Below the pieces are notes generated by a model. It did no database searches. It was not told where the DNA came from and worked only from the letters and a program-made list of their open reading frames with translations. Made by a program: the position numbers and the translations under genes. Below, piece by piece: positions 4,800-63,707 of a stretch of 64,000 nucleotides of DNA; position 1 is the first letter of the stretch, and each line of letters starts with the position of its first letter. Origin of the DNA: a virus (taxonomy: Duplodnaviria; Heunggongvirae; Uroviricota; Caudoviricetes); IMG/VR virus record IMGVR_UViG_3300011008_000020. One strand, 5' to 3'.

Positions 4800-6205
4800 T
4801 TACAGGATGCCATGCAGGTAGTGCGTGGTCTCGGCCTTCTCGACGTTGCCGGTGGAGCCGTCGTCCATGCCGGTCGCAAGGCCGCGCTGCTTGAAAGCCT
4901 TGGCGATGCCATCCTCGATCATCTTCTGAACAGCGTCGGCGTTCAGGGTCTCGGCGGCGGGGGCCTCCTCGGCCTGCTTCTCGACGGGCTTGGTAGCCTT
5001 CTCGATGGCGTCGGCGATCATCTTCTTGACGGTCTCCTCAGTCATCGTCTCGGCCTGCTTCTCGACCTGCTCCTCGGCAGGCTGATCGGCGGGCTTCATG
5101 GCCTTCTGGATGCTCTCGTCGATCATCTTCTGGATGTCTTCCTTGTTCACTTCGGTTTCCTCCTCATCTTCGTTCTTGTCGTCGGTTTCGGCGTCGTCCG
5201 GCTCGTCCTGATCGTCGTCAGGCTCGTCATCGAATTCCTTGGCGAACTCGATAAGCTGCTGGGCGATGCCATTCAGCTTCTCCTTGTTGGCCTTGGACAT
5301 CTTGCGTCCGGCCTTCTCCACGGCGTCCTCGCCACCGTCAGCAGCATCGGTCGGGTGGGCGTCGTGAAGTTCCTTGGTGATGGTCGCGCCATTGTCGTTG
5401 AGAATCTCGACGATGATCTCGTCGAACTCCTCAAGGGCTTCGCGCACCTTCGCCTCGTCGGTTTCGTAGGCGGGTTCATCCGTCCAGTAGTCCCAACGAC
5501 GCAGCACGGTTTCCAGCGTGTTGAACGCAATCCAGAACTTCTCGGAGCGCACACGCTTCTCGTACTTGTCGCGCATCTCGCCCTTGACGATGGCGCTCTC
5601 GACGCCGAGCGCCTTCGCCAACTTTTCCAGCAGGTTCAGCTTGTCCGGCACGTCGCCGGTCGCAGCAGGCGCGGATTCGGGCGCGGTGGCCTTCTCAAGA
5701 TCCACGTCCTCCGTGGCGTACTTGCCGACGCCGCCCATCGACAGGCCGGTGATCTGGCCCTTCTCGATGGCCTCCCAGACGTCATCGTTGGCGACCTCGA
5801 CGGTCATCAGCCACGTGCCTTTCTGGATGGTCTCGCCCTCGATGACCTGCTCGGCCTTCGTGACGGAACTCTCGACGACGGTCAGGCCGTCCGCCTCCTC
5901 GAAGGAGTGCTGGATGTCGATCTTGTCGCCGTTCTTCATAAACCAGTGAGCGGCCTTTTCGATCTCGCTCTCGGTCATATAGTTGTCGTGGGCGTCCGCG
6001 ACGTTGGGTTCGTAGACGACGCCGGTGACGTAGTGGCTCTCGTTGTCCACCTTGATGATGCGACCGTTGGTCTGGAATCCCTGACCGCCGTCTTCCTCCT
6101 GCTTGGTCAGCAGAAACGACTTCTTGTTCGCAGCCTTGTCCACCAGCGACACGAACTTGATCTTGGCGTCCGTGATCTCAATGGACTTCTTCACATTGCT
6201 CATTT
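4800..6205 (-). CDS. prohead protease (XkdF-like) fused to scaffold-like C-terminal repeats
   Basis: RBS AAAGGAGGTGA then MSNVKKSIEITDAKIKFVSLVDKAANKK (XkdF/prohead protease-like motif). Acidic C-terminus with 3 repeats xQKMIxDxIxKAxKP. Confidence 0.7.
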
Positions 6206-18482: not shown

Positions 18483-19776
18483 ATCGCTCCCAAAGTCCTT
18501 TCTTCCGAATCCAGTCGATCTTGCCGCGCACCGCCTGAGTGGAGCGCTTCATCGTCTTGGCACAGTAATCGTGGCCGTAACCCGCCTCGATCATCTGCAC
18601 GAGGTTGTGCATGTCGTCCTCGCTCCACTTCACTGTCGCGCTCTTGAGCGGACGAGGAAGGGCGAGGTCATAAATCCGCCTACGGATGCTGCTGGATGTC
18701 CTTTGGAAGGCGTGTTGCAAGTCCTCGTGGGTGTAGCACCCGGCCTCGCACATGGCGGTGAGCAGCGCGTCCTCCTGCACCGTCCACCGGCACTTCTTGG
18801 GCGTGGACATGAGCCTGTTCCGCTGGTCGATCTTCCGCTTCTCCTTGCCCCATGCCGGTTCCATGCCGAGCGCGTTCTCCTCGAAGCGAGAGAAGTCAAG
18901 GATGTCTTGGTTCCTCTCGGCCCACGTCCAGAACTCCTCGATGTCCACCTGTTTCCACATGCACCGTTGCACTCTGGTTTTGTGGACAGGAAGGCCACGT
19001 TCTTCCCATCGACGCATTGAGTAGGTGAGGCTCCCGCTATCGTCGAAACCGACGACTATCCGAGCGACTTGCAGGAGAGATACAAGTTCGCTGCCGTTTC
19101 GGTATGGGCCGAGCTTCAATCGCATTACACGTGTCTTGATCGCGCTTTCGGTTCTACCGAGAGCTTTCGCTATCCTTGGGATGCCGCCATAGCAGCCCCA
19201 TAGTTCGCGCAGTTGGTTTTCATCGTCCGGCGTCCAGTTATTGCTGTAGCTGCCCTTGTGGCACTGCTTGATGATCTTGCTGACAGCGCCTTGGGTGACG
19301 CCGAATTGCTGTGCAATATTTTTCTGAGAGCAGCCTTCGGCGTACAGGTCATAGACCTCGCGGCGCTGCTCGTTCGTCAGCTTGGCGCGGCCATTCTTCT
19401 CGCCAATGGTTGCGGTGTTTGCCAAAATCTTATCCTCCCAGTTTTCGTGCGGCGTCCCGTATGCCAGATTGCAGGGCCGGTTGTCCCGGCTGTCTCCGTT
19501 CAGGTGACGCACGTGTAGGTGGCTGCGGTTCTTCGGCTTCCCGTGGAAGCCCTCGCAGATCAGCGCGTGGACGTTCTGTGTGGTCATGCTTCCGTCCCGG
19601 CGCATCACGTGGACTGTGGCGTAGTCGCCGCAGGTGTATTGCCGGACGGGCTGCAGCGTCACATATCGAACGCCGTCCACGATCTCGCTGTCGATCACGC
19701 TGTAGATGTTCCCGTCACTCCCGGCGAACAGTCCGGCGTAATCGTACAACTCCGTGTACTCGATTGCTCCGCTCAT
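18415..19776 (-). CDS. HNH homing endonuclease with multiple HTH domains
   Basis: N-terminal HNH motif (HVRHLNGDSRDNRPCNLAYGT); repeated HTH-like segments. Confidence 0.75.
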   Translation of the reverse strand: MSGAIEYTELYDYAGLFAGSDGNIYSVIDSEIVDGVRYVTLQPVRQYTCGDYATVHVMRRDGSMTTQNVHALICEGFHGKPKNRSHLHVRHLNGDSRDNRPCNLAYGTPHENWEDKILANTATIGEKNGRAKLTNEQRREVYDLYAEGCSQKNIAQQFGVTQGAVSKIIKQCHKGSYSNNWTPDDENQLRELWGCYGGIPRIAKALGRTESAIKTRVMRLKLGPYRNGSELVSLLQVARIVVGFDDSGSLTYSMRRWEERGLPVHKTRVQRCMWKQVDIEEFWTWAERNQDILDFSRFEENALGMEPAWGKEKRKIDQRNRLMSTPKKCRWTVQEDALLTAMCEAGCYTHEDLQHAFQRTSSSIRRRIYDLALPRPLKSATVKWSEDDMHNLVQMIEAGYGHDYCAKTMKRSTQAVRGKIDWIRKKGLWERYAGRPLQASGHRSHEQGARTAP

Positions 19777-19804
19777 GGCGGTTCCTCCTTCGTGAATGTG
19801 GTCT

Positions 19805-20071
19805 TTACTTCTTGGCCTTGTCGATCAGCGTGAGAATCGCCGCCGCCACTATGTACATACCGAGCATGACCCATAAGGGCGTGAGCGTTACCAGCCACGG
19901 CCAGTTGATGACCTTGGTGTGCTTGAGGATTACAAGCACAATCTCGACGACTTCCATGAGAACCATTCCGCCGATGAACACCCGCACGTATCTACGCTCT
20001 CGGACGTCATTGGCGTACTCTCGCTTCTTCGCAAGGAGCGGGGCGGCTTCCCTGTCAAGGCTTCTCATATC
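19805..20071 (-). CDS. small membrane protein
   Basis: Two predicted TM segments (VLMEVVEIVLVIL; WVMLGMYIVAAAILTLI). Confidence 0.45.
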   Translation of the reverse strand, partial: DMRSLDREAAPLLAKKREYANDVRERRYVRVFIGGMVLMEVVEIVLVILKHTKVINWPWLVTLTPLWVMLGMYIVAAAILTLIDKAKK

Positions 20072-20630
20072 AAAACTTCTTCCCGTGCTTGTAGGGTCTG
20101 GTCTTGTTGTATTCCGCCTTCTCGTGCAGCACACTCTCCGGCGACACGCCATGCTCGCGCAGCCAGCCGAAGATCATGTCGGTGGCGTTGGAGAAGCACC
20201 AGCCCACGTCGTAGACGCCGCGCACGTCGCCGTTGTCGATGTCCACGCCGACGTCGGTGGAATCCCCAAGGGCGAGGCCGAACACGCTGGAAATGACGGC
20301 GTGCAGCTTGCAGACCAAGATCGGCAGCGGCTCCTCCGGCGTCGCGTACACGGGCCGCTCGGACTTGGCGATGTAGGGGATGTCGTAGCGGCCCATGAAG
20401 TCGAACATCCGAATCACACAGTCGATCAGTTCGACGGCGACGCCTTCCATCTTTTCCGGCTTCTCCGGGTTGGAGTACATCATGGGCGTGCCCTTCCGCG
20501 CTTCCTCAAGCGCTTCGGACAGTTCCGAGTGAATCAGGGCAATCGTCTCGCGGGATTCACGCCCATCATCCCACCAGCCATGCGCGAGGGCGGTCTGGTG
20601 GACGTCATTGATCACGTCAACGAAATTCAT
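20070..20630 (-). CDS. MazG-like nucleotide pyrophosphohydrolase
   Basis: IALIHSELSEALEEARKG is an EExxE MazG motif; RBS GGAGGAAAAAC. Confidence 0.7.
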   Translation of the reverse strand: MNFVDVINDVHQTALAHGWWDDGRESRETIALIHSELSEALEEARKGTPMMYSNPEKPEKMEGVAVELIDCVIRMFDFMGRYDIPYIAKSERPVYATPEEPLPILVCKLHAVISSVFGLALGDSTDVGVDIDNGDVRGVYDVGWCFSNATDMIFGWLREHGVSPESVLHEKAEYNKTRPYKHGKKF

Positions 20631-20703
20631 GTTTTTCCTCCAAACTTTCATCTTTGCAGGCGTTTCGTATAAGTATAGTTATATGAAATGCGTGCAAGAC
20701 GTT

Positions 20704-21874
20704 ATTACTCCGGCAATTAAACATTGCCGCCGTGGTCATTAGAATCATCAAGTACTCGATAGGGTGCGAGAGTCGGGTGACCAAAGTATGATTGGACGTG
20801 CTTCGGGTTTTGTGACAGTGATGTCATAAAAGCATTGGCGTTCTGCTGGAGATCGGCCTCTGTCTTGGCTTGCCGTTGGGATCCAATCGTCTGTTTCAGG
20901 TCATTGTTCAGGTATTCGTCTGGATTGTACTCCGGAGAATAGGAAGGGAGGAAAAACAGCCGGATTCGATCCTTGTGTTCCTCTATCCAATCCTCTACAA
21001 GTTTCCCGTGGTGGACCTTGAGGTTGTCCAGAATGATGTAGACTTTACGAGGAATATCCTTGAGCAGCCGCTCCAGAAACTCGATCAACTTCTGCTGATT
21101 CATGCTTTCTTGACTGAACATGAAGTGCAGTTTTCCCTGATTGCTGATGGCGCTGATCATGTTGATGTGCATCTTCCTGGCTTTCGTCTTCAGCACCGGG
21201 GTACGGCCTTTCGGCGCATAGCCTCTGGCATAGTTGGCCACATTCTGTACGGCGGTCTCATCGCCCCAGAAAATCTCTGCATCTTCCTTCTTTGCCTCGC
21301 TGTGGATGGCTGGATACTCTTCCTTCAACCATCGCTGTACCGCTTCCGGCTTTTGCTCAATCGCCTGCTTCGCAGGCCGTTGCACTGTAAATCCCCACCG
21401 CTGGAGATACATCCCCACTGTGCGAATGGGCATATCAATCCCGTACTTGTCCTTGATCAGCTGGCGAACAGCATCCCGCGTCCACAGCGCACACTTCATC
21501 TTCAGTTGATCAGGATTCTTGTCGGTGATGATCCGAACAACTTCCTTCTCCTGATTTGGTGTCAGTGTACGTTTCTCGCCGGCTTTTCTGCCGCGCTTCT
21601 TTGGCTTTAGTGCTGCCATGCCTCCACTCTTGTACTTCCTGATCGTTTCCCGGACCGTTCTCTCGCTGAAGTCAGTTACTTCTATAATCTCCTCCACTGA
21701 CTTCTGTTTCTTGAAGAGTGCGATAACGGTTTTCCGCATCTGATACAGAACTTCCGGCGTGGATTTCCGATAATCAGTTTTCTCTTCGATTCCCATGGTA
21801 TTATTATACCATGTCTGAACCTAACTTGCTATATCCTGTCGGCAATATTTTGTTGCTGAGTTAATAAAGTAAAG
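20704..21874 (-). mobile_element. IS630-family insertion sequence
   Basis: Imperfect terminal inverted repeats (20706-20743 vs 21836-21872; CTCCGGCAATTAAACATTGCCGCCGTGG vs rc CTCAGCAACAAAATATTGCCGACAGGA) flank a transposase ORF; about 1.17 kb. Confidence 0.7.
20717..21796 (-). CDS. IS630-family (Tc1/mariner-like DDE) transposase
   Basis: 359 aa; N-terminal HTH; DDE_3-like core (...ILDNLKVHHG...FLPSYSPEYNPDE). Confidence 0.85.
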   Translation of the reverse strand: MGIEEKTDYRKSTPEVLYQMRKTVIALFKKQKSVEEIIEVTDFSERTVRETIRKYKSGGMAALKPKKRGRKAGEKRTLTPNQEKEVVRIITDKNPDQLKMKCALWTRDAVRQLIKDKYGIDMPIRTVGMYLQRWGFTVQRPAKQAIEQKPEAVQRWLKEEYPAIHSEAKKEDAEIFWGDETAVQNVANYARGYAPKGRTPVLKTKARKMHINMISAISNQGKLHFMFSQESMNQQKLIEFLERLLKDIPRKVYIILDNLKVHHGKLVEDWIEEHKDRIRLFFLPSYSPEYNPDEYLNNDLKQTIGSQRQAKTEADLQQNANAFMTSLSQNPKHVQSYFGHPTLAPYRVLDDSNDHGGNV

Positions 21875-21935
21875 GCGAAATTCTTGCAGAAAGGCACAAC
21901 TTGGATATGTTTCTATTGGTGTCCTTCCGTGGAAT

Positions 21936-21964
21936 ATTATAGCTTCTTTTAGTGGTATTGTCAA
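21936..21964 (-). promoter_or_regulatory. consensus sigma-A promoter TTGACA-17-TATAAT (family member 1)
   Basis: Minus strand reads TTGACAATACCACTAAAAGAAGCTATAATATTCCAC; shares flanks with four other copies. Confidence 0.65.
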
Positions 21965-22239
21965 GCGGAAGATGGCTCTATTGGTGGCTTTTTTACGGAT
22001 TTGTCAAGGTTTCCAGCCTCGAAGGAGGCGCGGAACCTTGGCAACCTGAGTTGCCATCCGGTTGCCGAAGCATAAAAACATACGGAAAGTTGTGGAAAAT
22101 ACGGAAAATTGCGCCTTTGCCAGAGTGGCCGCGCCGGTGTGCTGGTGGTGCCGGAATCCCCTGAAATCGCTGTGCAATATGCGCATAGAACGTGTAGATT
22201 ATAGAGCAATAAGCATAAAAGCAAGGGCAAATACAGGGT

Positions 22240-22277
22240 AAATACAGGAAACGGGCCGAGAATTGCTTCTCGGCCCG
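22240..22277 (-). terminator. rho-independent terminator following tRNA 3' fragment
   Basis: 10-bp stem GGGCCGAGAA/TTCTCGGCCC followed by GTTTCCTGTATTT. Confidence 0.6.
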
Positions 22278-22279
22278 TG

Positions 22280-22320
22280 TGGTCTGGGTGAGAGGATTCG
22301 AACCTCCGGCCTCTTGAACC
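22280..22320 (-). other. tRNA 3'-end fragment (T-arm plus acceptor plus CCA); att-site-like remnant
   Basis: GGAGGTTCGAATCCTCTCACCCAGACCA on the minus strand; no complementary 5' acceptor strand within 100 nt. Confidence 0.55.
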
Positions 22321-22575
22321 CCATTCAACATTTTCCAACTGCATTTTATACGCTTTTCATCGCATATCCCGCGTTATCAGCGGTATAAACCGGCGAAACT
22401 GCGTATATTCATGCGGCTTCAAAAACGTGTGGTTGCCAAGAAGTTGCCAAGCCCATACCCGACCCTGAACTCCGGCGAAAACAGCATCGCTTTAGCGCTC
22501 CATGCGCTATGTTTCCAATGGTGTCGGCACAACATCGTCTATGCATTGGTATTATACCGCCTGCTGAACGTGTTG

Positions 22576-23082
22576 TCAATGGTTCCCCTCTCGCTCGATG
22601 GTCATCTGCGCAATCGGGCACACTTTCCGTTCCGGGAAGTCATAAGCAAAGAGCGCCTCGATGTTCTTGCGAACCGGGCAGCGTTTTGATTCCTTCTCCG
22701 TCTTCTCGCACATCAGGCAGTTCATGTCGATCACCTGATCTTCCATCCACTCAAGGGCGTCGTTCGGGACGTATGTGAACATCTGCTTGTGTGCGCCGGT
22801 GTAATCCGGCGTGACGTTGATTTCAACGCGGGTGTGGTCGATCTCCTGCCTGATCTGTTGCAGCTTCTTCGGCGGCACCGTCGCAAGCACCTTGTCGAGA
22901 AGCCGGTCGGCCAGCGCGACAATCAGCCTGGCATGGCACCAGCCCATGTTGATGCCGCGCAGGCGCTTCTCAAGGTAGCCCAGTTCCGTTTCAAATGTCG
23001 ATACGACACCCATCAACGCTCGGAGGCCGTAATACTCTCGCCCGGACAGGTTTGTGCGTTCGGATGGCTGTTCATTGCTCAT
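22576..23082 (-). CDS. hypothetical protein with C-terminal Cys cluster
   Basis: RBS GGGAGG then MSNEQPSERT; CLMCEK...KRCPVRK. Confidence 0.5.
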   Translation of the reverse strand: MSNEQPSERTNLSGREYYGLRALMGVVSTFETELGYLEKRLRGINMGWCHARLIVALADRLLDKVLATVPPKKLQQIRQEIDHTRVEINVTPDYTGAHKQMFTYVPNDALEWMEDQVIDMNCLMCEKTEKESKRCPVRKNIEALFAYDFPERKVCPIAQMTIEREGNH

Positions 23083-23275
23083 GTTGAACCTCCCTGTCAG
23101 TGATCTTGAAGTTATGGTCACGGGTTCCGAGCTTCACCATGAGCGACATCAGCGCATTGTAGTTGTTTGATTCCAGCATCACCGTCCATGCGCTCGCCGT
23201 GTTTCTGACCCGCTGCGGAAAGTGGACGGCGCTGATCTCCTCAAGGCTTGACCGCCGCAGCAGTTTATACTTCAT
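23072..23275 (-). CDS. hypothetical protein (67 aa)
   Basis: ORF. Confidence 0.45.
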   Translation of the reverse strand: MKYKLLRRSSLEEISAVHFPQRVRNTASAWTVMLESNNYNALMSLMVKLGTRDHNFKITDREVQHEQ

Positions 23276-24090
23276 TGTTCAGGTGCCCCTTTCCTGGCTG
23301 CGGTGAGAACGGCATCGAGCAGCTTCTCCGTCTTGTCACGGGTGAGCCTTCGTCCGCAGCACATCTTCCCTTCCGGGCAGTAGAGCAGATATTCGCACTG
23401 CGGGACAAGATGTGCAGCAAAGTCAGCATTGACTTTTTCGACAACACCCTTTATTTCCCATGCCAGTTCGTTGATAAACTCCTGCGCCCGGTTGCAGAGC
23501 CGCTTATGGCAGAAGTGAATCAGGGCTTCCGGCGTGAAGCCGATCACGAGGTCTGTGGTTGTGGCGCGTGGCATGACCATGTTGACGGCCTCGACAGCCT
23601 CCTTCATGGTGCATCCGCCTCGCTCCAAAATGGCCTTGATGTCGCTGCGGGCATCCCTGATCTGCTGCATGATGGCGTAATATCGCTTGCTCGCCTCTTC
23701 GTTGCCCCTGATTGCTTCCGGGATGACATAGCTGAACGCGCCTTTGTCGATGTAGCGGAAACTCGCCATGTTCTTGACGATGTTGGCCGGATTTTCGTTG
23801 ATGATGTCATATTGCTGCGCTTCGGCCCACATATAGTTGTCCTGCATCTCGAATGGCACCCATGTCCCGATTTCATGCCTCATGCACTGTTCAGCGGTGC
23901 CACGGTCGATTCCTCCAATGCGGAATTTTATGTACTCACAACGAGAGCCGGACATATGGCCGGACTTTTGGCACGCAGCACCGACCGCCTTTGCGCGGTC
24001 TATGGGTGTATCGTAACAGACGCGGGCGAACTCGCCGTGGTTCTTTTCCAGATTCTCAAGCACTCCTTGGTTGATGATTTCGACCTTCAT
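23272..24090 (-). CDS. ThyX-family (flavin-dependent thymidylate synthase-like) protein with non-canonical RHE motif
   Basis: Aligns by eye to ThyX (MKVEIINQGV...; FRIGGIDRGTAEQCMRHEIGTW vs F.i.g.sRa..hQlvRHRiaS; ...HFCHKRLCNRAQEFINELAWEI). RHR is replaced by RHE and the serine is absent. Confidence 0.6.
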   Translation of the reverse strand: MKVEIINQGVLENLEKNHGEFARVCYDTPIDRAKAVGAACQKSGHMSGSRCEYIKFRIGGIDRGTAEQCMRHEIGTWVPFEMQDNYMWAEAQQYDIINENPANIVKNMASFRYIDKGAFSYVIPEAIRGNEEASKRYYAIMQQIRDARSDIKAILERGGCTMKEAVEAVNMVMPRATTTDLVIGFTPEALIHFCHKRLCNRAQEFINELAWEIKGVVEKVNADFAAHLVPQCEYLLYCPEGKMCCGRRLTRDKTEKLLDAVLTAARKGAPEQ

Positions 24091-24124
24091 GGTATCACCT
24101 CCGTGTGATGTTGTCGGTCGTATG

Positions 24125-24562
24125 TTATACCGGCTCTGCAGCGAAAACCTCGTCCTCCCATGCCTTCGTGGCCGCTTCGCCCATCCGAATCGCGTCCATC
24201 ATGGTTTCGCCTTTTCGCGGGCCGACCATCCAGCTCGGTGGCAGCGGCATCGCCTCGTGCTGCGGTCGCCAGATGTGCAGGCAGAAGTTGTGGAGATTGA
24301 CGTATTCATCCTCTGGCGGATGGAGCTCGAAGCAGGCTTCCTCCGGCTTGAAGAACATGCGCTTGATTTCAGCCATTTCCTCCCACGTCGGCATACGATT
24401 CGAGAAGCTGACCGAGACATGATCCCACCAACAGCCCCATGAGCCGATCACAGTGGCAGCGCGGTTTTTCGTACTGGACAGAAGGTAGACGTTTGCCTTA
24501 AAGCCGTCCTGTGATTCTGCGATGACTTGAATCCTGGGAAGCATTCTGATTTCCGTCATGGT
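24125..24562 (-). CDS. hypothetical protein
   Basis: ORF; start at MTEIRMLPRIQ after GAGGGTG. Confidence 0.45.
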   Translation of the reverse strand, partial: TMTEIRMLPRIQVIAESQDGFKANVYLLSSTKNRAATVIGSWGCWWDHVSVSFSNRMPTWEEMAEIKRMFFKPEEACFELHPPEDEYVNLHNFCLHIWRPQHEAMPLPPSWMVGPRKGETMMDAIRMGEAATKAWEDEVFAAEPV

Positions 24563-24973
24563 CTTTATGGTCTTCACCCTCTTTCTTGAGATAGCACTTC
24601 GGAATCGGGACGCCTGTGTAGTGCGGTGGGTCGAAGTTGACGCCAGCGCCACCCTCCGGCATGTGGTGCCATGCGTTGACGTAACGGACGGCCTGATAGA
24701 TGTTGTATGCGATATTGGAATCCTCGCAGCAGTTGACGTTGAAGGATTCGTGTGGCTGCAGGGCAGGGAAGAACAGGTGGCTCATGGTATCAAGGAGTAT
24801 TTCGATACTCCGAAAATCGACATTCGCACCCGTATCGTGGACGTGCTGCAGGAGCGCAAACTTGATCTCATTGAACTGGCCGATGTGCAGCCGGAACAGC
24901 AGCTCGACGGCGCGTTCGAGGACAACAGCCTGTTCGTCAGTCAGTTCAAGGATGACACGATCTCCCGGATTCA
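24498..24973 (-). CDS. hypothetical protein (TTG start)
   Basis: AAGGAGGGGG RBS 6 nt upstream of TTG; (M)NPGDRVILELTDEQ. Confidence 0.45.
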
Positions 24974-24976
24974 AAG

Positions 24977-25280
24977 CTACCCCCTCCTTACGATTGGAGT
25001 TTTCTGTACCATATCCCACACGACCTCGAAGCGATCTGCCGGACAATATGCGAAGTTGGCGCAATCATCCATGAGCATGAGGCGTCCGTCCTCGGAGAAT
25101 GCGAATCCGTCGATGTCGCAGTAGATCAGCCGCCTGGCCCACCCTTCACGCAGGGCGATCTCTTGTGTGTCCGGCTCCCTTCCCGTTTTCTTGTCGATGA
25201 CGTGGAAGCCGGTGATGCAGAACTCGACCTGTTCGCCATACGCAGAACGCAGCATGGCTCTGGATTCAAGATTGCTCATA
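24977..25280 (-). CDS. hypothetical protein
   Basis: RBS GGGAGG then MSNLESRAML. Confidence 0.5.
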
Positions 25281-25290
25281 CTGTGCCTCC

Positions 25291-25830
25291 CTACGCGCCC
25301 AGCTTCTCTCCGCAATCCGGGCAGTATTTTGTGGGCTTGGTGGCCTGATGGCCGCACTCGGAGCAGACATAGATGACGTTCCAGCGCGGAGTTTCGTCGG
25401 CAAGCACGGCCTCCTCAATGGACTGTTCCGCCTCGATTACGGCCTGTTCCAGCGGCAGCTTATCGTCAGGATTCGGCGCTGCCTTGTCGCGCTCGGTTGC
25501 CTGCGCTGCGAGCCACGTCCTGAACATGATTGCCTGCGGCTTCTTGGCGATGGTGGCCGAGCGCAGGTAGTCCATCAGGCCGTCGTAGGTGATGATGGTG
25601 GTGGTATTCTTCCGACCTTCCTTGTTGGTCACGCAATCGCGGGCGAGGTCGAAGCGCCGGTAGAAGCGTTCCTTGTTGTCCTTGTCCTTCGCGTGCCAGC
25701 TCCATGGGGAATGGCCGGATAGGCCGATTCCGGCGCACACGTCCTTGATCATGTAGTAGCGCGTTCCGGCGACGAACACCGTGCGTACCCTGCCAACTGG
25801 CGTGTTGAGAACGTATCTGGTTCTGCTCAT
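25291..25830 (-). CDS. Bro-N/KilA-N-like domain protein with C-terminal zinc ribbon
   Basis: VRTVFVAGTRYYMIKDVCAGIGL is Bro-N-like; C-terminal CSECGH...CPDCG. Confidence 0.55.
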   Translation of the reverse strand: MSRTRYVLNTPVGRVRTVFVAGTRYYMIKDVCAGIGLSGHSPWSWHAKDKDNKERFYRRFDLARDCVTNKEGRKNTTTIITYDGLMDYLRSATIAKKPQAIMFRTWLAAQATERDKAAPNPDDKLPLEQAVIEAEQSIEEAVLADETPRWNVIYVCSECGHQATKPTKYCPDCGEKLGA

Positions 25831-25835
25831 GTTGC

Positions 25836-26078
25836 TTACCTCCCTCTCGGTTCTTCGATGTTCTCGCCTTTCTTGATGGTGTCGCGCAGGTTGCGCAGTA
25901 CGGTCAAGACTTCCATGTTGTACTCGCCGAGCCTGTACTGCCATCCCATCGTAGCGTTCTTGAGCGGGCTGAAATACTCCATCTGGTTTCGCGCCACGTT
26001 CTCCGCTTCTTTCAGTTCTTCATCGGTTACGGAAAGGATGTCATTGCAGATTTGTTTGATCTTATCAATAGCGTTCAT
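25836..26078 (-). CDS. hypothetical protein (80 aa)
   Basis: ORF. Confidence 0.45.
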   Translation of the reverse strand: MNAIDKIKQICNDILSVTDEELKEAENVARNQMEYFSPLKNATMGWQYRLGEYNMEVLTVLRNLRDTIKKGENIEEPRGR

Positions 26079-26088
26079 GAGCGCCTCC

Positions 26089-26340
26089 TCAGTAAATAAT
26101 CAGTGCTACATTGGAACTGTGGACGAGGTATGTCTTCCCGTCGATCTTGACCTGAATCTGATCGCCGTCCTCGAAATCCGTCCAGCTCTGAACTTCTCCC
26201 TTTACCACATCACCGTTTGGCAGGGATATGATCGCCCGGTCAAACTTGTAGTTCAGGTCGATGATCTGTTTGTTGCCGCACGCGGTCAGGGCCAGCGCAG
26301 CCAGCGTGAGCAACAAAATGATGGCAAAAATCCTTTTCAT
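26089..26340 (-). CDS. lipoprotein (signal peptide plus LTAC lipobox)
   Basis: MKRIFAIILLLTLAALALTAC. Confidence 0.6.
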   Translation of the reverse strand: MKRIFAIILLLTLAALALTACGNKQIIDLNYKFDRAIISLPNGDVVKGEVQSWTDFEDGDQIQVKIDGKTYLVHSSNVALIIY

Positions 26341-26352
26341 TCTGAACCTCCT

Positions 26353-26802
26353 CTATCCTTGAGCCTTTGCGGCGCGGTCGTACATGACGATGCTGCCCGC
26401 CGTGGAGACGTTGTAGCAGTAGTCGCCAATGAGCTGCACCGTCTCCCGGCAGCGTTCCAAGATTTCCTGTGGGACGCCGTAATCCTCCGCGCCCAGGAGG
26501 TAGATGCACCTGTCGCGGTGGTGGTAGGCTTCCAGCGGGATGCTGTTCTCTGCCAGCTCCACGGCGACGACAGGGCAATCATATGGGACGTGCCGGAAGA
26601 AGTCATCAATGTCCTCGTAGTGGAACAGTGGGATGTGGCGCGGGGCCTTGATGGTATCGGAGCATTGATGCTTGTACCGGCGACCAATCGTAAAGATGAA
26701 GTCAGCGCCGAGGATGGCGGCAGAGCGCCACAGCGTCCCGATGTTCTTTTCCTTCTTTGCATGGTAGATGCCGATTCCGAAATAGCCCTTTTTCGTGATC
26801 AT
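26353..26802 (-). CDS. SPOUT-class (SpoU/TrmL-like) RNA 2'-O-methyltransferase
   Basis: GIGIYHAKKEKNIGTLWRSAAILGADFIFTIG ... NVSTAGSIVMYD parallel TrmL motifs. Confidence 0.65.
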   Translation of the reverse strand: MITKKGYFGIGIYHAKKEKNIGTLWRSAAILGADFIFTIGRRYKHQCSDTIKAPRHIPLFHYEDIDDFFRHVPYDCPVVAVELAENSIPLEAYHHRDRCIYLLGAEDYGVPQEILERCRETVQLIGDYCYNVSTAGSIVMYDRAAKAQG

Positions 26803-27101
26803 GGATTGTACCTCGTTGCTTCGTGAAAGACATTGGATTCTTTCGTTTCCTCGTCATACCAGCCTCCTGGGGGTTCAGGTAACGGCATCCAATGTGTGAT
26901 TCGGTTATTATAGTTTGCGATCTTGCTTAATCCTGCTATATTGAAATCCCAATCGTCGCCAGATAAATGGAACTCGCCATGTTCCTTGTCGGCAAGAGAT
27001 AGAATTGAGCGAACCGTTTTCGGTGTATTCCCATTTGCATCAAAGACGATACAGGGCGGTTCAGGCCTTCTTTCTTTTGCGTCAATCCACTCCATTTGCA
27101 T
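26799..27101 (-). CDS. DUF551-like phage protein
   Basis: MQMEWIDAKERRPEPP matches the characteristic DUF551 N-terminus. Confidence 0.55.
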   Translation of the reverse strand: MQMEWIDAKERRPEPPCIVFDANGNTPKTVRSILSLADKEHGEFHLSGDDWDFNIAGLSKIANYNNRITHWMPLPEPPGGWYDEETKESNVFHEATRYNP

Positions 27102-27288
27102 CTTGCGCCCTTCCCCATTTCATTTCTTTGCAATCCTTCGCCTTTACTTCCGAGCATCTGCGCTCGTGCTTCTGGCAGTATGCGTAGACGTGAGCAAAGC
27201 CTACAGGGTGGTAATTATTCGGCACATGATATATGCTGAATTTACGCTCTTGCATGTGCGGACATCGCTTGCACTCATGCACTTTCAT
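27082..27288 (-). CDS. small Cys/His-rich protein
   Basis: 68 aa; CKRCPH...YCQKHERRC. Confidence 0.45.
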   Translation of the reverse strand: MKVHECKRCPHMQERKFSIYHVPNNYHPVGFAHVYAYCQKHERRCSEVKAKDCKEMKWGRAQDANGVD

Positions 27289-27851
27289 TCCCGCTCACCT
27301 CGCAGTGGGTCGGCGTCATCGACATAACACCAGCTTTGCGGAGCGCGGGTCATGCCCGTATACACCGTCCGACCTTCTTCGTTGAACGTAAACCGGCTCG
27401 AACCCGTACAGAAGTCGCTCAGTGGGTAGGGCTTCTTGTAGACCTTGAGCTCTGAAATGTGCAAGCCATAGAGCCCAAGAATATACGGCTTGAAATCTTT
27501 GGATGTTGCGGAGTGCTCGTACTTGCGAAGCTCGTCTATCGTGAGGCACGAACCAGCAATCATGGCTTCATCCGAAATATCGCAAAAGCCATTCTTCCAT
27601 CCCGTCACCGTCGTGAACTGATAGATTTTGTCGCAGATGAATTCCAGGACGATAGCGCCGCGCCCCTTGAAGATCATGTGTCCGTCCTCGTCCTGCCAGG
27701 GCGTTTCTGTCGGGCCTTGCGTCTCGTAGACAAAGCACTTGAACGGCGGGTCTTGCTTTGGCCTGGTCTTTCTGACCTCGATCTCCTTCCGGCCCGCTTC
27801 GATCTCTCTGACGTAACGCGGGCGGATGCTCAACATGATGTTCTGATTCAT
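27285..27851 (-). CDS. ASCH domain protein
   Basis: MLSIRPRYVREIEAGRKEIEVRK is ASCH/PUA-like. Confidence 0.6.
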   Translation of the reverse strand: MNQNIMLSIRPRYVREIEAGRKEIEVRKTRPKQDPPFKCFVYETQGPTETPWQDEDGHMIFKGRGAIVLEFICDKIYQFTTVTGWKNGFCDISDEAMIAGSCLTIDELRKYEHSATSKDFKPYILGLYGLHISELKVYKKPYPLSDFCTGSSRFTFNEEGRTVYTGMTRAPQSWCYVDDADPLRGERE

Positions 27852-28084
27852 TCTCCCAACCTCGAAAGCGCCTTGATGCGCTCGTCGTAGGTGTGGACGC
27901 GGCGCATATGAATCTCGCGCTTCTTCCCGTAATACTTCGTGAGAGCTTCCTTTGCCTCACCGGCGTCGTAGTGGTAGTGCTTTGATACCGGCGCAAGTGG
28001 CTCTACCGAGTAGAGGGCGAAACTGACATCACTGTACGGTACGCCGATCAGTTCAGCGATTTCCTTCTGGGTATATGTCTTCAT
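27848..28084 (-). CDS. small HTH protein
   Basis: RBS GGAGGACAAC then MKTYTQKEIAELIGVPYSDV. Confidence 0.5.
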   Translation of the reverse strand: MKTYTQKEIAELIGVPYSDVSFALYSVEPLAPVSKHYHYDAGEAKEALTKYYGKKREIHMRRVHTYDERIKALSRLGE

Positions 28085-28139
28085 GTGGTTGTCCTCCATT
28101 CCCGCGCCCGTCATAGCGGGCGCGGGCGACGTTCTTGCG

Positions 28140-29044
28140 TTACTGTTCCTGGGATTCAACCGCGTCAGGCGCAGCCTGAATGATCGGCATGGCACTGTCA
28201 GAACCGACGTAGGTGCCCGGCAGCTTGCCGTCCCAGTTCTGCGCCTGCACATAGTCAATGAGGCTTTGGGTGATGGAATCAGAGAGCTTCTGGTTTGCCT
28301 CTGCTTCCGCCTCTGCCTGCACCTTGATCTCGTAGGCTTTCGCGTCCGCTTCGGTGCGCGTCACGTCTGCTGCGGCCTCTGCCGCGATCTTCTTGCGCTG
28401 CGCCTCCTGTTGGGCCTCCATCGTCTGTTGCTCCTGCTGGGTTCTGGCCCGCTGGGCTTCCTGCGTGGCGACCTGTTTGGCCTCGACGGCGCTCTCGAAG
28501 GCGTCAGTGAAGTCAATGTTCTCGATGGAGATCGCCGTGGCCGTGATGCCATAGGGTTCCAAGTCGCGCTTCATCAATTCAAGCACTTCGGAGGAAAGGG
28601 TCTCCCGGCTGGCGATCAGGCTTTCGGCGGTGTAGTTGGAAACGACGACCTTGACGTTTTCGTTCACGCGAGGGGAAATCAGCGTTGCGAAGTAATCGCC
28701 GCTGATCGTCTTGTAGAGCGTGTTCGCCGCCTCCGGCGTGACATTGTAATTGATCGAGACGAAAAGCGTGACCTGCTGGATGTCGGACGAGAACGCGACG
28801 ACCTCGCCGTCTCTGATCTGTGTTCGGACGTTGATCGGATGCACCTGATCGAAGTAGCCCGTCACATGGAATCCAGCAGGCAGCACGCCATCCTTGATCT
28901 TGCCAAAGTGGGTAATCACGCCCACGTAGCCGCTGTCCACCTTGGCGAAGAAGCCGTAGGTCGGCATGAAAATGTCCACGATGAACAGAACGACGCAGAT
29001 GACAAGCAGAACGACGGCAGCAGCCTTAATGTAGTCTCTCATAG
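28140..29044 (-). CDS. SPFH/band-7 (prohibitin/HflC-like) membrane protein
   Basis: Strong RBS AAGGAGAG; N-terminal TM (AAAVVLLVICVVLFIV) then SPFH core; coiled-coil Q/A/E-rich C-terminus. Confidence 0.7.
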
Positions 29045-29124
29045 ATAATCTCTCCTTCTTTCGGTTCTTGTGCTTCTTGGTGTTCCGTGCAAAGAATATC
29101 TCGTCCTGATACATTTTCCCCTCC

Positions 29125-29334
29125 TTATTCAGCCATCTCACGTGAGATGTTAGCCTTTGTCTGGCGTAGCATATCGAGCCGCTCCTCGATATGGGAAATC
29201 CGGGCGTTGTATTCCGCAGTTAGGGTTCTCTTTTCGATACACAGCCTTGCGATCTCGTTGTTGATGTCAGTAATCAGTTCAAAGCCGGTTTTCATCCGAA
29301 CTAAGTCTTCCATTGTGCAATCCTCATTCGTCAT
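29125..29334 (-). CDS. small coiled-coil protein
   Basis: 69 aa ORF. Confidence 0.45.
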   Translation of the reverse strand: MTNEDCTMEDLVRMKTGFELITDINNEIARLCIEKRTLTAEYNARISHIEERLDMLRQTKANISREMAE

Positions 29335-38372: not shown

Positions 38373-38422
38373 GGTGAAGTTCCTCCTTTGTGAGTGTTTC
38401 CAGTGGTTGCTTTCTGTGGAAT

Positions 38423-38451
38423 ATTATAGCCGCTAATGGTGTCATTGTCAA
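38423..38451 (-). promoter_or_regulatory. consensus sigma-A promoter TTGACA-17-TATAAT (family member 2)
   Basis: Minus strand reads TTGACAATGACACCATTAGCGGCTATAATATTCCAC. Confidence 0.7.
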
Positions 38452-38529
38452 GAGGGAAAATGCCTCTTTTGGAAACTATTTTCGGAATTTCCCGCTTCTT
38501 ATGGTGGTTTTTTCTTGTTGACACTCCTC

Positions 38530-48953: not shown

Positions 48954-49040
48954 ATGGATTCACCCTCTTTCACCCCCACGCCCGTCGCCGGGCGCAGGGG
49001 AGTGTTCGTCTATGACACCGTTAGATGCCGTTTGTGGAAT

Positions 49041-49069
49041 ATTATAGCCGCTAACGGTGTCATTGTCAA
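49041..49069 (-). promoter_or_regulatory. consensus sigma-A promoter TTGACA-17-TATAAT (family member 3)
   Basis: Minus strand reads TTGACAATGACACCGTTAGCGGCTATAATATTCCAC. Confidence 0.7.
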
Positions 49070-49101
49070 TATGGTTAATGCAACTGATAGAAACTTTTTT
49101 G

Positions 49102-54568: not shown

Positions 54569-54605
54569 CCTCCTTTCTGTTTCTAATGGTGTCGTCCCGT
54601 GGAAT

Positions 54606-54634
54606 ATTATAGGCGCTGTTAGAAACTTTGTCAA
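54606..54634 (-). promoter_or_regulatory. consensus sigma-A promoter TTGACA-17-TATAAT (family member 4)
   Basis: Minus strand reads TTGACAAAGTTTCTAACAGCGCCTATAATATTCCAC. Confidence 0.65.
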
Positions 54635-54658
54635 GCCCTTTTTTGTCTCTGATCGTGT

Positions 54659-54982
54659 TTATTTTACTGCCGGGGCGCGACGCTGGCCGCGCTGGACAGA
54701 ACCAGACCGGGCGACGCGGGAAACGGAGCGCCCATACTGATGAAACTGGGTCTCAAATTCGGGGTTCAGGAAAACCAGATCATCCGGGTTCGGATTGTCG
54801 CCGCGTTCCCTTGCCTCGGCGAAGCGCTCCATGTTGACGCTCTGGATTCGGCGCTGCAGGTCACGAACGGTGTCCGCATAGTACATGCGCTCCTCCGCGA
54901 CGGCGCGGTACTTGTCCCAGATCACGAGGCGGTCGATGCCGATACCAGCGATCAGCGCGAGAATGATATACAGGGTAATCAT
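54659..54982 (-). CDS. membrane-anchored hypothetical protein
   Basis: RBS AAGGAGG then MITLYIILALIAGIGI. Confidence 0.5.
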   Translation of the reverse strand: MITLYIILALIAGIGIDRLVIWDKYRAVAEERMYYADTVRDLQRRIQSVNMERFAEARERGDNPNPDDLVFLNPEFETQFHQYGRSVSRVARSGSVQRGQRRAPAVK

Positions 54983-60529: not shown

Positions 60530-60955
60530 ATGTCAATTTTCGGTGAGAGGCTGTATGAGGCCCGCAGGCGGCAGCGGATTACTCAAGGCGATCTGGCAGA
60601 TCGCGCAGGCGTCACCCGGTCGGCCATCGGTGGGTATGAGAAGATGGGAAAGGATGCCAGCTATGAAGTATTGGTGAAGATCGCGCAGGCACTCGGCGTG
60701 ACGACTGACTACCTGCTCGGCATGGACGACAATGCTGGCTGGCATAAGCGCACCGGCGTCGCCGAGAAGTTCTACGATCTTGAGCTTTACTATGACCGTG
60801 CGCCAGACGAGCAGAAAGCCACCATAGACAGCCTGCTCGTGGAGGTGGACAAGTTGCTCGCCTTCTTCCTCGCGTCGCCGGACACGGCGCGGCTGGGCCA
60901 TCTGCGTGACCTCCTCGCGGACGCCCGCAGGCTCATGGGTGATGGCAATGAGTGA
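60530..60955 (+). CDS. XRE-family HTH regulator with C-terminal domain
   Basis: RBS GGAAGGAG then MSIFGERLYEARRRQRITQGDLADRAGVTRSAIGGYE. Confidence 0.65.
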   Translation: MSIFGERLYEARRRQRITQGDLADRAGVTRSAIGGYEKMGKDASYEVLVKIAQALGVTTDYLLGMDDNAGWHKRTGVAEKFYDLELYYDRAPDEQKATIDSLLVEVDKLLAFFLASPDTARLGHLRDLLADARRLMGDGNE

Positions 60956-62138
60956 GAACAAGCCGTTCGTCGTCTACGGCGACTATGGGCGCGACAGCGA
61001 GGGCAAGCGCATCCGAAAGAAGTTCACCGGCGTGGACGAGGTGGAGGCCCGGTTGAAGAAGCGGGAGTATGAGAAGGAACGCGCCATTGGCCTGCACAAG
61101 TACGCCGACACCATGACGGTGCGCCAGTGGACGGACATCTGGATGAACGCCTACCGCTCCGAGATCAAGGGCACGAACAAGGTCTCCTATGACACATACG
61201 TCGGGCGGCTGAACGCAGAGATCGGCCACATGAAGATCAAGGATGTGCAGAACATCCACCTGTACCGATGCTTGTTGACCATGAAAGGAATGTCGAAGTC
61301 GTCCCTCACAAAGTACCGCATGGTGATTCAGCAGGTATTCCGAAAGGCCCGGCAGAACAAGGTGCTCCCGGACGACCCAAGTGAAGACCTCGAACTGCCG
61401 AACGGCACCAGCGGGACGCACCGGGCGCTTGAGAAGTGGGAGATCGACCTGATCTTCGAGAATTGGCAGGTCTATAACAGCGGCCTATGGGTGATGATTA
61501 TGCTGCTGGCCGGGCTTCGGCGCGGCGAGCTGGTGGCCCTCGACTGGGACTACGTGGACATGAAGGAGCGCAACATCGTCGTCGAGCGTGCCGCCGAGAT
61601 CGTGACGAATCAGGCCGTCATCAAGGATTCCGCCAAGACAGAGGCCGGGACGAGGGCGCTGCCGATCTGCGACAAGCTGTTCGATGCGCTGTCCACCGTG
61701 CCGGAGGCGGAGCGCAAGGGGCCGGTGTGCCACAGCAAGGGCGGCGTGCGCCTGACGCAATCCTCATATTCGTGGGGGATGCGCACCTTCAACCAAGCGA
61801 TGGAGCGGATTCTGAACGGCGAGCCGCCAATCCAGCAGGGACGCCGGAAGGATTGCGAGGACAAGAAGAAGGGCCAGAAGGAAAAGGAGGCGCAGGAGCG
61901 CAAGAGGTTTTCCATCCGTGGACACGATCTGCGGTTCACCTACGCGACCGCGCTCTACGACGCGGGGGTCGATGTCAAATCTGCCATGTACTACCTCGGC
62001 CACAGCGACATCCGCATGACAATGAGCCTATACACTCAGCTTTCAAAGGAACGCGAGAACCTGTCCCGCGCACAGGCGATCACCTTCCTCGACAACTGGC
62101 TGAAACCCAAGAACGACGACGAAAAAGACGAAGATTGA
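60948..62138 (+). CDS. int: tyrosine-type site-specific integrase
   Basis: Catalytic residues R (LRRGELVALDW), H-x-x-R (HDLRFTYA) and Y (SLYTQL); overlaps the upstream gene's stop. Confidence 0.9.
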   Translation: MSENKPFVVYGDYGRDSEGKRIRKKFTGVDEVEARLKKREYEKERAIGLHKYADTMTVRQWTDIWMNAYRSEIKGTNKVSYDTYVGRLNAEIGHMKIKDVQNIHLYRCLLTMKGMSKSSLTKYRMVIQQVFRKARQNKVLPDDPSEDLELPNGTSGTHRALEKWEIDLIFENWQVYNSGLWVMIMLLAGLRRGELVALDWDYVDMKERNIVVERAAEIVTNQAVIKDSAKTEAGTRALPICDKLFDALSTVPEAERKGPVCHSKGGVRLTQSSYSWGMRTFNQAMERILNGEPPIQQGRRKDCEDKKKGQKEKEAQERKRFSIRGHDLRFTYATALYDAGVDVKSAMYYLGHSDIRMTMSLYTQLSKERENLSRAQAITFLDNWLKPKNDDEKDED

Positions 62139-62202: not shown

Positions 62203-62231
62203 TTGACAATGTTGCCATTAGTTGCTATAAT
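62203..62231 (+). promoter_or_regulatory. consensus sigma-A promoter TTGACA-17-TATAAT (plus-strand family member)
   Basis: CTTGACAATGTTGCCATTAGTTGCTATAATGG; TGGTGTCAAT motif at 62187-62196. Confidence 0.65.
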
Positions 62232-63625: not shown

Positions 63626-63707
63626 GGGAATGTAGCGTAATTTGGTAACGCACACAGGCGGTGCACCTAACCTGCGGTTGTCGGTTCGAATCCGAACATT
63701 CCCACCA
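63626..63707 (+). other. tRNA-like element 2 (7-bp acceptor, D-arm, T-arm GGTTCGAATCC, ACCA; no canonical anticodon arm)
   Basis: GGGAATG/CATTCCC acceptor; D-stem GCGT/ACGC; variable-arm-like AACC-tgc-GGTT. Confidence 0.35.

Follow-up and report, generated by a model that had tools for sequence, protein, structure and literature searches.

The stretch of DNA analyzed here (64,000 nt; hereafter the window) carries phage genes that, from ~1,500 to 58,600, are nearly all on the minus strand. The site under study lies among them, at 22039-22579, and the phage genes on its two flanks are all on that strand. To the right are repressor-like HTH genes, a gene for a fused Mre11/Rad50-like protein, and genes for dCTP deaminase, a SpoU methylase and ThyX. 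To the left are genes for a pyrophosphatase, an HNH endonuclease, a ParB-methyltransferase, the small and large terminase subunits, portal, protease and major capsid protein. This gene annotation bears out the placement of the site, in an initial annotation made from the sequence alone, between the early and late halves of the phage map. Phage genes continue past both ends of the window, with sheath, tube and tape-measure genes beyond the left end (contig L024) and DnaN, HNH, SSB and an IS481-type element beyond the right end (L018, L019). Thus, the integrase gene at 60942..62138, the only one in the window, is not at a prophage end.

The gene adjacent to the site on the right encodes protein p168 (22576-23082). 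Between 21880 and 22575 there are only implausible open reading frames for a small protein, and the gene calls of L021, an independent assembly, are empty there. A consensus scan found a promoter at either side. Promoter 1 (22551..22579, minus strand; TTGACA-N17-TATAAT) matches the consensus at 12 of 12 positions and is predicted to fire through the right-hand repeats and the tRNA-like core described below, toward a terminator. Promoter 2 (21936..21964, minus strand) has the form TTGACA-N17-TATAAT followed by ATATTCCAC and belongs to a repeat family, D1, with further copies at 38.4, 49.0 and 54.6 kb. It is conserved in all of the relatives that we aligned and is predicted to drive the operon that runs from the pyrophosphatase gene to the late genes. 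The occurrence of this promoter family on either side indicates that the DNA on both sides of the site belongs to the same phage.

An insertion sequence of the IS630 family (~20699..21870, minus strand) lies between promoter 2 and the pyrophosphatase gene, in the 5' UTR. Its transposase reading frame (20717-21796) matches DDE_3 (3e-41) and also HTH_33, HTH_32 and HTH_29, and its 31-nt terminal inverted repeats (20699-20729 and 21840-21870) are 74% complementary. The initial annotation had the site abutting IS630. An IS630-type element is indeed nearby, and "abutting" is loose wording for an element whose end is 410 nt from the CCA of the tRNA-like core and 169 nt beyond the last of the repeats on that side. 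No IS630 was found at this position in the related contigs L017/L053, L055 and L066. Because no relative has the element and its location is outside the repeat arms, we conclude that it is a strain-specific insertion, a bystander with no role in the site.

At the center of the site is the 3' part of a tRNA gene. The 49 nt at 22280..22328 (minus strand) are identical at 49 of 49 positions to tRNA-Pro(GGG) from the anticodon stem to the CCA. Read from 22328 to 22280, they correspond to positions 29-77 of the full tRNA-Pro(GGG) genes in L008, L023 and L057 (100%) and comprise the 5' strand of the anticodon stem, the anticodon loop, the variable loop, the T arm, the 3' acceptor strand and CCA. The initial annotation had described a tRNA 3' end without a 5' half; this was correct, and the exact match to tRNA-Pro is longer than the fragment then claimed. 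The 28-mer GGAGGTTCGAATCCTCTCACCCAGACCA occurs once in the window, at 22307-22280 on the minus strand, where chance would give no occurrence even with 3 mismatches allowed. A search of IMG/VR with this 28-mer returned 15 contigs, and in L008 alone is it the end of a complete tRNA-Pro(GGG) gene. In eleven of the other contigs the match begins at an identical position, as is the behavior of att cores, and 14 att sites in IMG/VR share the core together with its left boundary. The site itself is not an assembly mis-join, as the independent assembly L021 reproduces it intact at 100% identity.

Other identities for the fragment were considered and rejected. ARAGORN, and Rfam at the gathering threshold, called no tRNA gene at the site, and the only match in a permissive Rfam scan there was a weak one to tmRNA (11.9 bits, E 0.017), an identity ruled out by the exact match to tRNA-Pro. 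The fragment is not a functional tRNA gene: there is no complete cloverleaf, and the CTGGGTG acceptor strand is missing upstream. Nor is it part of a split or intron-containing tRNA, since neither a 5' acceptor strand nor a D arm lies upstream of it. The related contigs L053/L017, L055, L066 and L068 likewise carry a partial fragment and not a full tRNA gene. The 64-kb window contains no second copy, either of the core or of the tRNA-His 3' end, that could mark prophage ends.

The core occurs as two alleles that differ by three compensated pairs in the T stem. Type A is present in the window, L055 and L060, and type B in L053, L066 and L068. Both alleles also serve as att cores in many unrelated IMG/VR phages, a pattern that fits the tracking of two host tRNA-Pro alleles.

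Directly after the CCA is a 12-bp hairpin (22251..22278, minus strand) with a predicted free energy of -23.8 kcal/mol (z = -6.6), in line with the strong terminator that had been noticed there. Its T tail is weak (GTTTCCTGTATTT), which is why a consensus terminator scan did not return it. Among the relatives a hairpin always follows the CCA, and its sequence varies: L055/L057 and L066 have a homologous hairpin in the same place, and L053 and L068 have one of another sequence. In L057 the hairpin stands after a complete tRNA gene. We rejected the idea that the hairpin is the native terminator of a host tRNA gene, brought in with transduced host DNA, since it is homologous to the phage-borne hairpin of L055 and L057. 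The junction of CCA and hairpin found here was absent from IMG/VR and from GTDB genomes. After the hairpin comes a T-rich tail with two copies of CCTGTATTT 11 nt apart (22229..22248, minus strand; also seen as AAATACAGG at 22229-22237 and 22240-22248, with the same 11-nt spacing). These repeats, which the initial annotation had listed as well, are not conserved in L053, L055 or L066 and probably belong to the tail of the terminator and not to a site that proteins bind.

Short repeats flank the core on both sides. To the right, which is upstream in the sense of the tRNA, the motif GTTGCCAAG is present at 22432-22440 and 22443-22451. On the tRNA-sense strand it reads as two copies of TGGCAAC with 11-nt spacing (TGGCAAC-TTCT-TGGCAAC, 22432..22449, minus strand), at -121 and -110 from the start of the core; we refer to these as the P-arm pair. 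The initial annotation had listed these direct repeats at 22427-22445; the repeats exist, and their true place is ~5 nt further right. On the other side (22039..22067) are the P'-arm copies, CGGCAAC, TGGCAAC and an inverted GTTGCCA, 11 nt apart and, in the tRNA sense, +213, +224 and +235 after the CCA. They correspond to CGGCAAC at 22061-22067 and TGGCAAC at 22050-22056 on the minus strand and TGGCAAC at 22039-22045 on the plus strand, and they contain the inverted repeat GGCAAC/GTTGCC that had been pointed out earlier. TGGCAAC is not in excess in the window as a whole (10 found, 8.4 expected); 4 of the 10 heptamers, however, are concentrated in a 411-bp interval that surrounds the core (Poisson P ~3e-7 per interval, ~5e-5 after correction for position).

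Two further conserved elements accompany the repeats. An A/T-rich box, GTATAAAATGCAG (22339..22351, minus strand), is located 10 nt upstream of the core, and a similar box (GYATAAAATRCA or its complement) is at the same distance in L010, L005, L007, L023, L053, L055, L066 and L068. A bending or accessory protein might bind this box. A conserved block, TTTTCCGTAT...CCGTATGTTTTTATGC (22068..22110, minus strand), lies immediately upstream of the P' repeats; its core columns, TTTTCC-TAT and TGTT-TT, do not vary in an alignment of four lineages. A TGGCAAC-like pair just after the integrase gene (62211-62227) was also considered as a second att arm and was judged to belong to the spacer of a repeated promoter family.

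The whole arrangement is conserved in related phages. A pattern search for the P-arm pair with the core returned one metagenome contig, L017, and one genome, L023. L017 is from the same phage as the 69-kb contig L053, and the two are collinear with 19246-29305 of the window at 70-88% identity and lack the IS. Searches with homologues of the flanking proteins added four further lineages, represented by L055, L060-65, L066 (a 101-kb contig) and L068/70/71. Six lineages (the window, L053/L017, L055, L060-65, L066 and L068) keep the layout between p168 and the pyrophosphatase, with the adjacent p168 protein only 63-86% identical among them. The order is ThyX, p168, promoter 1, the TGGCAAC pair, the A/T box, the core, the hairpin, the conserved block, GGCAAC-TGGCAAC-GTTGCCA, promoter 2 and the pyrophosphatase. 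The comparison with related prophages proposed in the initial annotation thus found both the partial tRNA fragment and the layout kept at the same locus.

In an alignment of four of these lineages (the window, L053, L055 and L066; mean column identity 68%), the invariant islands are the two promoters (in promoter 1, both the -35 and the -10 hexamer), the P-arm pair, the A/T box, the core, the TTTTCC-TAT block and the P' repeats. The arms rank among the best-conserved non-coding blocks, and the P' arrangement GGCAAC-N4-TGGCAAC-N3-AGGTTGCCAAG is invariant in all four and is present in the integrated form L057 as well. The point at which the tRNA fragment is truncated is identical in all relatives, and it coincides with the point at which the sequences of free and integrated forms (attP and attL) diverge. 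In a population variant, L059, both P-arm repeats are lost through a 50-nt deletion; given this variant, the site may be dispensable in some genomes. Beyond these lineages, megablast found no close relatives among GenBank phages, in which the att region matched only a 43-nt stretch of the core, and neither a protein search with p181 nor a pattern search with the P' arm found relatives in IMG/VR.

Some of the relatives are found integrated in a tRNA-Pro gene, and others, such as L055 and L068, in free form. In the 1.6-kb contig L057, ARAGORN calls a complete tRNA-Pro(GGG) gene, which is accompanied by a promoter of host type and followed by the phage hairpin, the P' repeats and promoter 2. L055 and L057 encode one and the same pyrophosphatase protein; beginning with tRNA position 30 the two contigs agree at 99.9% identity, and ahead of that position they are unrelated. 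L057 is thus the attL that matches the attP contig L055. Two other contigs, L069 and L073, have the p171 protein gene, promoter 1, the P arm and the core as in the attP contigs L068, L070 and L071. After the CCA their terminators differ from those of the attP contigs, and L069 runs on into host genes (for a secreted protein, a sigma factor and the CCA-adding enzyme). L069 and L073 are attR junctions. L069 has a type A T arm and its sister attP contigs have type B, which hints at a crossover 5' of the T stem; as the strains also differ by several single-nucleotide changes in the P arm, this is no more than suggestive.

The Clostridiales bin RUG103 (L023) has both a TGGCAAC-armed attL and a TGGCAAC-armed attR, around a 1.4-kb insert. 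Its left part consists of a full tRNA-Pro gene, a hairpin, a TGGCAAC/GTTGCCA pair and the insert, which is AT-rich and has no integrase. Its right part consists of a TGGCAAC pair at -121/-110, a 48-nt core, a host terminator and a transporter gene. In the L060 lineage, several short contigs end inside the core, as one expects at a point where the coexistence of free and integrated forms makes an assembly graph fork.

The candidate enzyme for the site is the tyrosine integrase encoded at 60942..62138 on the plus strand (Pfam Phage_integrase), an intact, full-length reading frame in the opposite orientation to the core and separated from it by 38.6 kb. Homologous integrases in IMG/VR adjoin the same core. 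The integrases of L011/L046 (54-56% identical to that of the window), L005/L049 (41-42%) and L047 (50%) are each followed, after the stop codon, by a direct-repeat pair with 11-nt spacing, the tRNA-Pro(GGG) core and a terminator. In contigs of the L046, L049 and L047 types the core begins ~70-110 nt after the repeat pair, and L046 and L047 have more copies of the repeat, some inverted, on the P' side. The geometry is shared among att sites. The P-arm pair is at -121/-110 relative to the core start in the window and in the attR of L023, at -120/-109 in L017 and L007, at -124/-113 in L046 and at -121/-109 in L049 and L050, and across the att sites compared the P'-side repeats are 105-280 nt after the CCA. 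The motif at this distance is TGGCAAC in L007 and in the attR of L023 and another one in L046, L049 and L050. Such differences between phages are expected from diverging arm-binding domains. This shared geometry with the int-adjacent attPs of homologous integrases, combined with diverging motifs, makes it a well-founded reading that the repeats flanking the core on both sides are putative arm-type sites, that is, P and P' arms. The initial annotation had likened them to integrase arm-type sites, and their clustering, their conservation and their geometry all agree with that comparison.

Because homologues of the window integrase adjoin the same core with the same arm geometry, this integrase is the best candidate for the enzyme that uses the site, and we think it likely that it does so. 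The pairing of this particular protein with TGGCAAC arms is something we infer from these parallels; among its homologues, none was found beside a TGGCAAC-armed site. No core was found within 2.5 kb of the integrases of L044 and L045 (55% identity), and none near that of L067 (71% identity), in which the gene context HTH-Int-DarA_C-DnaN is conserved. A search of IMG/VR for close matches to the integrase gave only a 41.5-kb contig of the same phage, and the best match among GenBank phages is below 30% amino acid identity.

Relatives with this layout have recombined into host tRNA-Pro genes, and the site is therefore the working attP of the lineage. We are confident, if short of certain, in this conclusion: 22039-22579 is in all likelihood an attP, complete and unsplit, that belongs to a temperate phage of myovirus type; the phage targets tRNA-Pro(GGG) and probably has a genome of ~100 kb. 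The layout of P arm, core, terminator and P' arm is very probably the one with which the lineage integrates. We propose that the integrase is heterobivalent. Its N-terminal domain would bind the arm repeats, its core-binding and catalytic domains would bind the inverted halves of the anticodon stem, and strand exchange would take place within or near the anticodon loop. Integration would join the 5' part of the host tRNA gene to the 3' part and terminator carried by the phage, forming attL. This would keep tRNA-Pro functional, with the phage hairpin terminating the rebuilt gene. The 3' fragment of the host gene would be displaced, along with the terminator that follows it, to a place behind the P arm, forming attR. 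In the phage map the cut would fall between p168 and the pyrophosphatase operon.

With its attP unsplit, the phage of the sequence analyzed is not integrated by way of this site; the earlier picture of an integrated prophage with an internal relic does not apply to it. We infer that the sequence is either an unintegrated genome (circular or virion-derived) or the middle junction of a tandem lysogen. The protein clusters of the exact integrase, p168 and pyrophosphatase each have a longest contig of 103,255 nt, and contigs of relatives measure 100.6 and 101.0 kb. The source thus appears to be a complete phage genome in free form, ~100 kb long with two IS elements in addition, and the 64-kb window covers all but ~39 kb of the presumed 103 kb. 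Integrated forms were seen for the relatives and none was observed for the strain in the window.

Several other explanations could account for part of this evidence. The initial annotation had proposed that the locus is a scar or ancestral attachment site, a fusion of two elements or a mosaic junction, possibly linked to IS630. A tRNA fragment that lacks its 5' half and lies in a phage genome near an IS does look like such a remnant. We now give this explanation almost no weight. The site has two arms of one kind, a perfect core, an intact terminator and the same promoter family on either side, its layout is kept as a unit in six lineages that lack the IS, and integrated forms exist. A different possibility is that the window is the junction between two copies of the phage in tandem at tRNA-Pro (a polylysogen). 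Where two copies of a lysogenic phage meet in tandem, a junction like attP forms anew, and the arrangement of P arm, core and P' arm would be the same in it as in a free genome. A perfect tandem would, however, collapse in short-read assembly, and the longest contig, close in size to those of the relatives, suggests a single genome-length contig; we therefore regard a tandem as very unlikely. The attP could also be an orphan, intact and no longer used, in a phage that is episomal, integrates elsewhere or is effectively lytic. The distance of 38.6 kb between integrase and attP, the lack of any observed integrated form of this phage, the variant without P-arm repeats and the accumulation of two IS elements in the genome would all be consistent with disuse. 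An unused site would nonetheless be hard to reconcile with a core that matches a current host tRNA allele at 49 of 49 positions, with arms, terminator and boxes that are invariant across lineages otherwise 25-35% different, with relatives of the same layout found as attL and attR, and with an integrase that is an intact reading frame in a conserved context. Disuse is thus an improbable explanation.

It is also conceivable that the site is a working attP and that its enzyme is not the integrase at 60942-62138. In L053, L060 and L066 a XerC-like recombinase (359-374 aa, with a SAM-like N-terminal domain) is encoded 3.4-4 kb upstream of the site, just upstream of the block formed by ThyX, p168 and attP. 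It is unrelated to the window integrase (19% identity). Recombinase genes are usually near their att sites, and this nearness favors the XerC-like protein, or else the enzyme could be a recombinase encoded in the part of this genome beyond the window. Yet neither the window nor L055 has the XerC-like gene at that position, and a phage of the L055 type has nevertheless integrated, as L057. Xer-type recombinases normally have no arm-binding domain, whereas the site has conserved arm repeats. The genes for homologues of the window integrase directly adjoin this core, with an arm geometry like that seen here, and the gene context of the integrase is conserved in L067. We consider another enzyme unlikely and prefer the integrase at 60942-62138.

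A further idea concerns the role of the promoters. The arrangement of promoter 1, attP, terminator and promoter 2 is kept in all six lineages. The attP might be a conserved, transcriptionally insulated unit far from int, in which transcription across the site gates integration or excision. Promoter 1 would fire through the P arm and core into the terminator, and promoter 2 would restart the operon that leads toward the late genes. We regard this as a speculative and rather doubtful proposal. If it is true, attR in a lysogen could yield a stable RNA that ends in the 3' half of tRNA-Pro, and the 39-kb separation of int and attP would be a selected layout that puts the prophage ends at the boundary between early and late operons.

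The site is readily compared with the attPs of heterobivalent tRNA-targeting integrases, which follow the logic of the lambda-type Int (for example, those of P4, P22, HP1 and mv4, and the islands in Islander [PMC4383910]). Elements that target tRNA genes split the target gene and restore it with a copy of their own, and the displaced fragment marks the far end of the element [PMC4383910]. As in those attPs, the core here is the 3' part of a tRNA gene that would be rebuilt on integration, repeated, putative arm-type sites are present on both sides with helical spacing, and the element encodes a tyrosine integrase. Unlike in those attPs, int is encoded on the other strand at a distance of 38.6 kb, a separation that the relatives appear to share, and the site has a strong consensus promoter on each side and lies within the main leftward direction of transcription. 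Our search of the literature on the separation of int and attP found nothing usable. Williams, in 2002, reportedly described an anticodon-loop class of tRNA integration sites, and the left identity boundary here, in the anticodon stem, matches that class.

The attPs that we found in IMG/VR (L046/L011, L047, L049/L005 and L050) have the same 48-49-nt core as the window and a paired arm repeat ~110-124 nt upstream of it (~68-79 nt in L047). Beyond the P'-side terminator, more repeats are present in L046 and L047; contigs L049 and L050 stop 130-142 nt past the CCA. In contrast to the window, int in these phages ends directly at the P arm, and the arm motifs are others: GGCAGTA in L046, GTGGTCA in L047 and GTGGTC in L049 and L050. 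The core also resembles the tRNA genes and pseudogenes of phages in having a T arm, a 3' acceptor strand, CCA and a terminator. It differs from them in that no 5' acceptor strand or D arm lies upstream and in that its truncation point is fixed. Neither the TGGCAAC arm motif nor this integrase clade is known to have a characterized member; integrases of GenBank phages are less than 30% identical.

What is new here is an uncharacterized lineage, a new arm motif, and an integrase gene and attP that are 38.6 kb apart and in opposite orientation, with strong, conserved promoters on both sides of the attP. This separation, apparently a trait of the lineage, is the sole unusual feature, and no new mechanism is needed to explain the site. 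For annotation, the analysis provides an attachment site, a target gene and a likely integrase for an uncharacterized lineage of ~100-kb temperate phages, whose hosts we place among Clostridia-type bacteria of the rumen and gut. The two T-stem alleles of tRNA-Pro(GGG) can aid host assignment. The integrase is not at the prophage end, and tools that assume that attP is beside int would misplace the ends of such prophages.

Finally, the family of tRNA-Pro integrases to which these phages belong uses at least six arm motifs: TGGCAAC, GGCAGTA, GTGGTCA, TACTAATAAC, TACTGCTTAC and CTGCTAAC. The family could be a source of orthogonal integrases. With one core, one arm geometry and many motifs, it offers a natural series in which to study how arm specificity diverges.

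In one related lineage, contigs with the phage attachment site (attP) and a contig with an attR junction carry different alleles of the core, the 3' part of tRNA-Pro(GGG). The T stem of the core is type B in the three attP contigs (L068, L070 and L071) and type A in the attR contig (L069), and the p171 protein is identical between L069 and the attP contigs. This difference is compatible with a crossover on the 5' side of the T stem, whether in the variable region or in the anticodon stem-loop, and with mismatches in the T arm being tolerated. Because the attP and attR strains differ by several SNPs, the T stems are only suggestive of the crossover position.

Contig L059 (JGI 3300011002) has a 50-nt deletion, equivalent to window positions 22409-22458, that removes both TGGCAAC repeats of the P arm. 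The contig otherwise matches the att region of the window, and it may represent a naturally occurring variant defective in integration, or an artefact of assembly.

L018 and L019, independent 41-kb contigs matching the phage, both terminate within the integrase gene, int (window ~61649-62055), and contig L020 begins with 63 nt of a diverged form of the int sequence that precedes 61781. Taken jointly, the three contigs point to strain variation inside int or to a mosaic breakpoint there. In three related lineages, the SpoU methylase and Zn-ribbon genes are separated by a gene for a XerC-like tyrosine recombinase (L053 4615-5739, L060 1-526 and L066 142-1254). The equivalent position in the window (~25831-26347) has an 83-aa ORF (26089-26340) instead.

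The pyrophosphatase operon has the IS630-family insertion (20699-21870) in its 5' UTR. This insertion is strain-specific, being absent from the relatives L017/L053, L055 and L066. No clear TA target duplication was found at this insertion. Contig L021, which matches the window's phage, departs from the window sequence 6 nt inside the transposase ORF, and this divergence suggests a second IS variant with the same end.

Successive operons in the window are headed by a family of putative near-consensus promoters, TTGACA-N17-TATAAT, found on the minus strand at 21921-21995, 38408-38482, 49026-49100 and 54591-54665, with further members at 22551-22579 (-) and 62203-62231 (+). Relatives also keep this family. 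Most of its members are followed downstream by the motif ATATTCCAC, which could serve as an operator.

A phage-borne tRNA-His(GTG) is called at 63626-63707 (+; 82 nt), with an Rfam tRNA score of 42 bits. It has normal acceptor, D and T arms but an abnormal anticodon arm, in which a CAGG/CCTG stem encloses a loop of ~12 nt. The call is kept in L018 and L019 (contigs 99.5-99.7% identical), and the region has 85% identity in the relative L067. Elsewhere, a single 1,283-aa ORF (49102-52953, -) fuses an N-terminal calcineurin-like phosphoesterase (Mre11/SbcD-like) to a Rad50/SbcC-like SMC ATPase. A 490-aa protein matching head maturation protease families is encoded by a gene containing imperfect tandem repeats of ~100 nt each (4889-5159, -), which may specify a repetitive scaffold-like domain.

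The Clostridiales genome bin RUG103 (L023 6506-7992; OMZP01000019.1) has an AT-rich 1.4-kb insert between a full tRNA-Pro and a displaced core, flanked on both sides by TGGCAAC arm repeats. The insert contains no integrase and has three small genes, two of which match DUF3467 and DUF2283. It may be what is left of a decayed prophage; alternatively, the phage Int may be able to mobilise it in trans as a small element.
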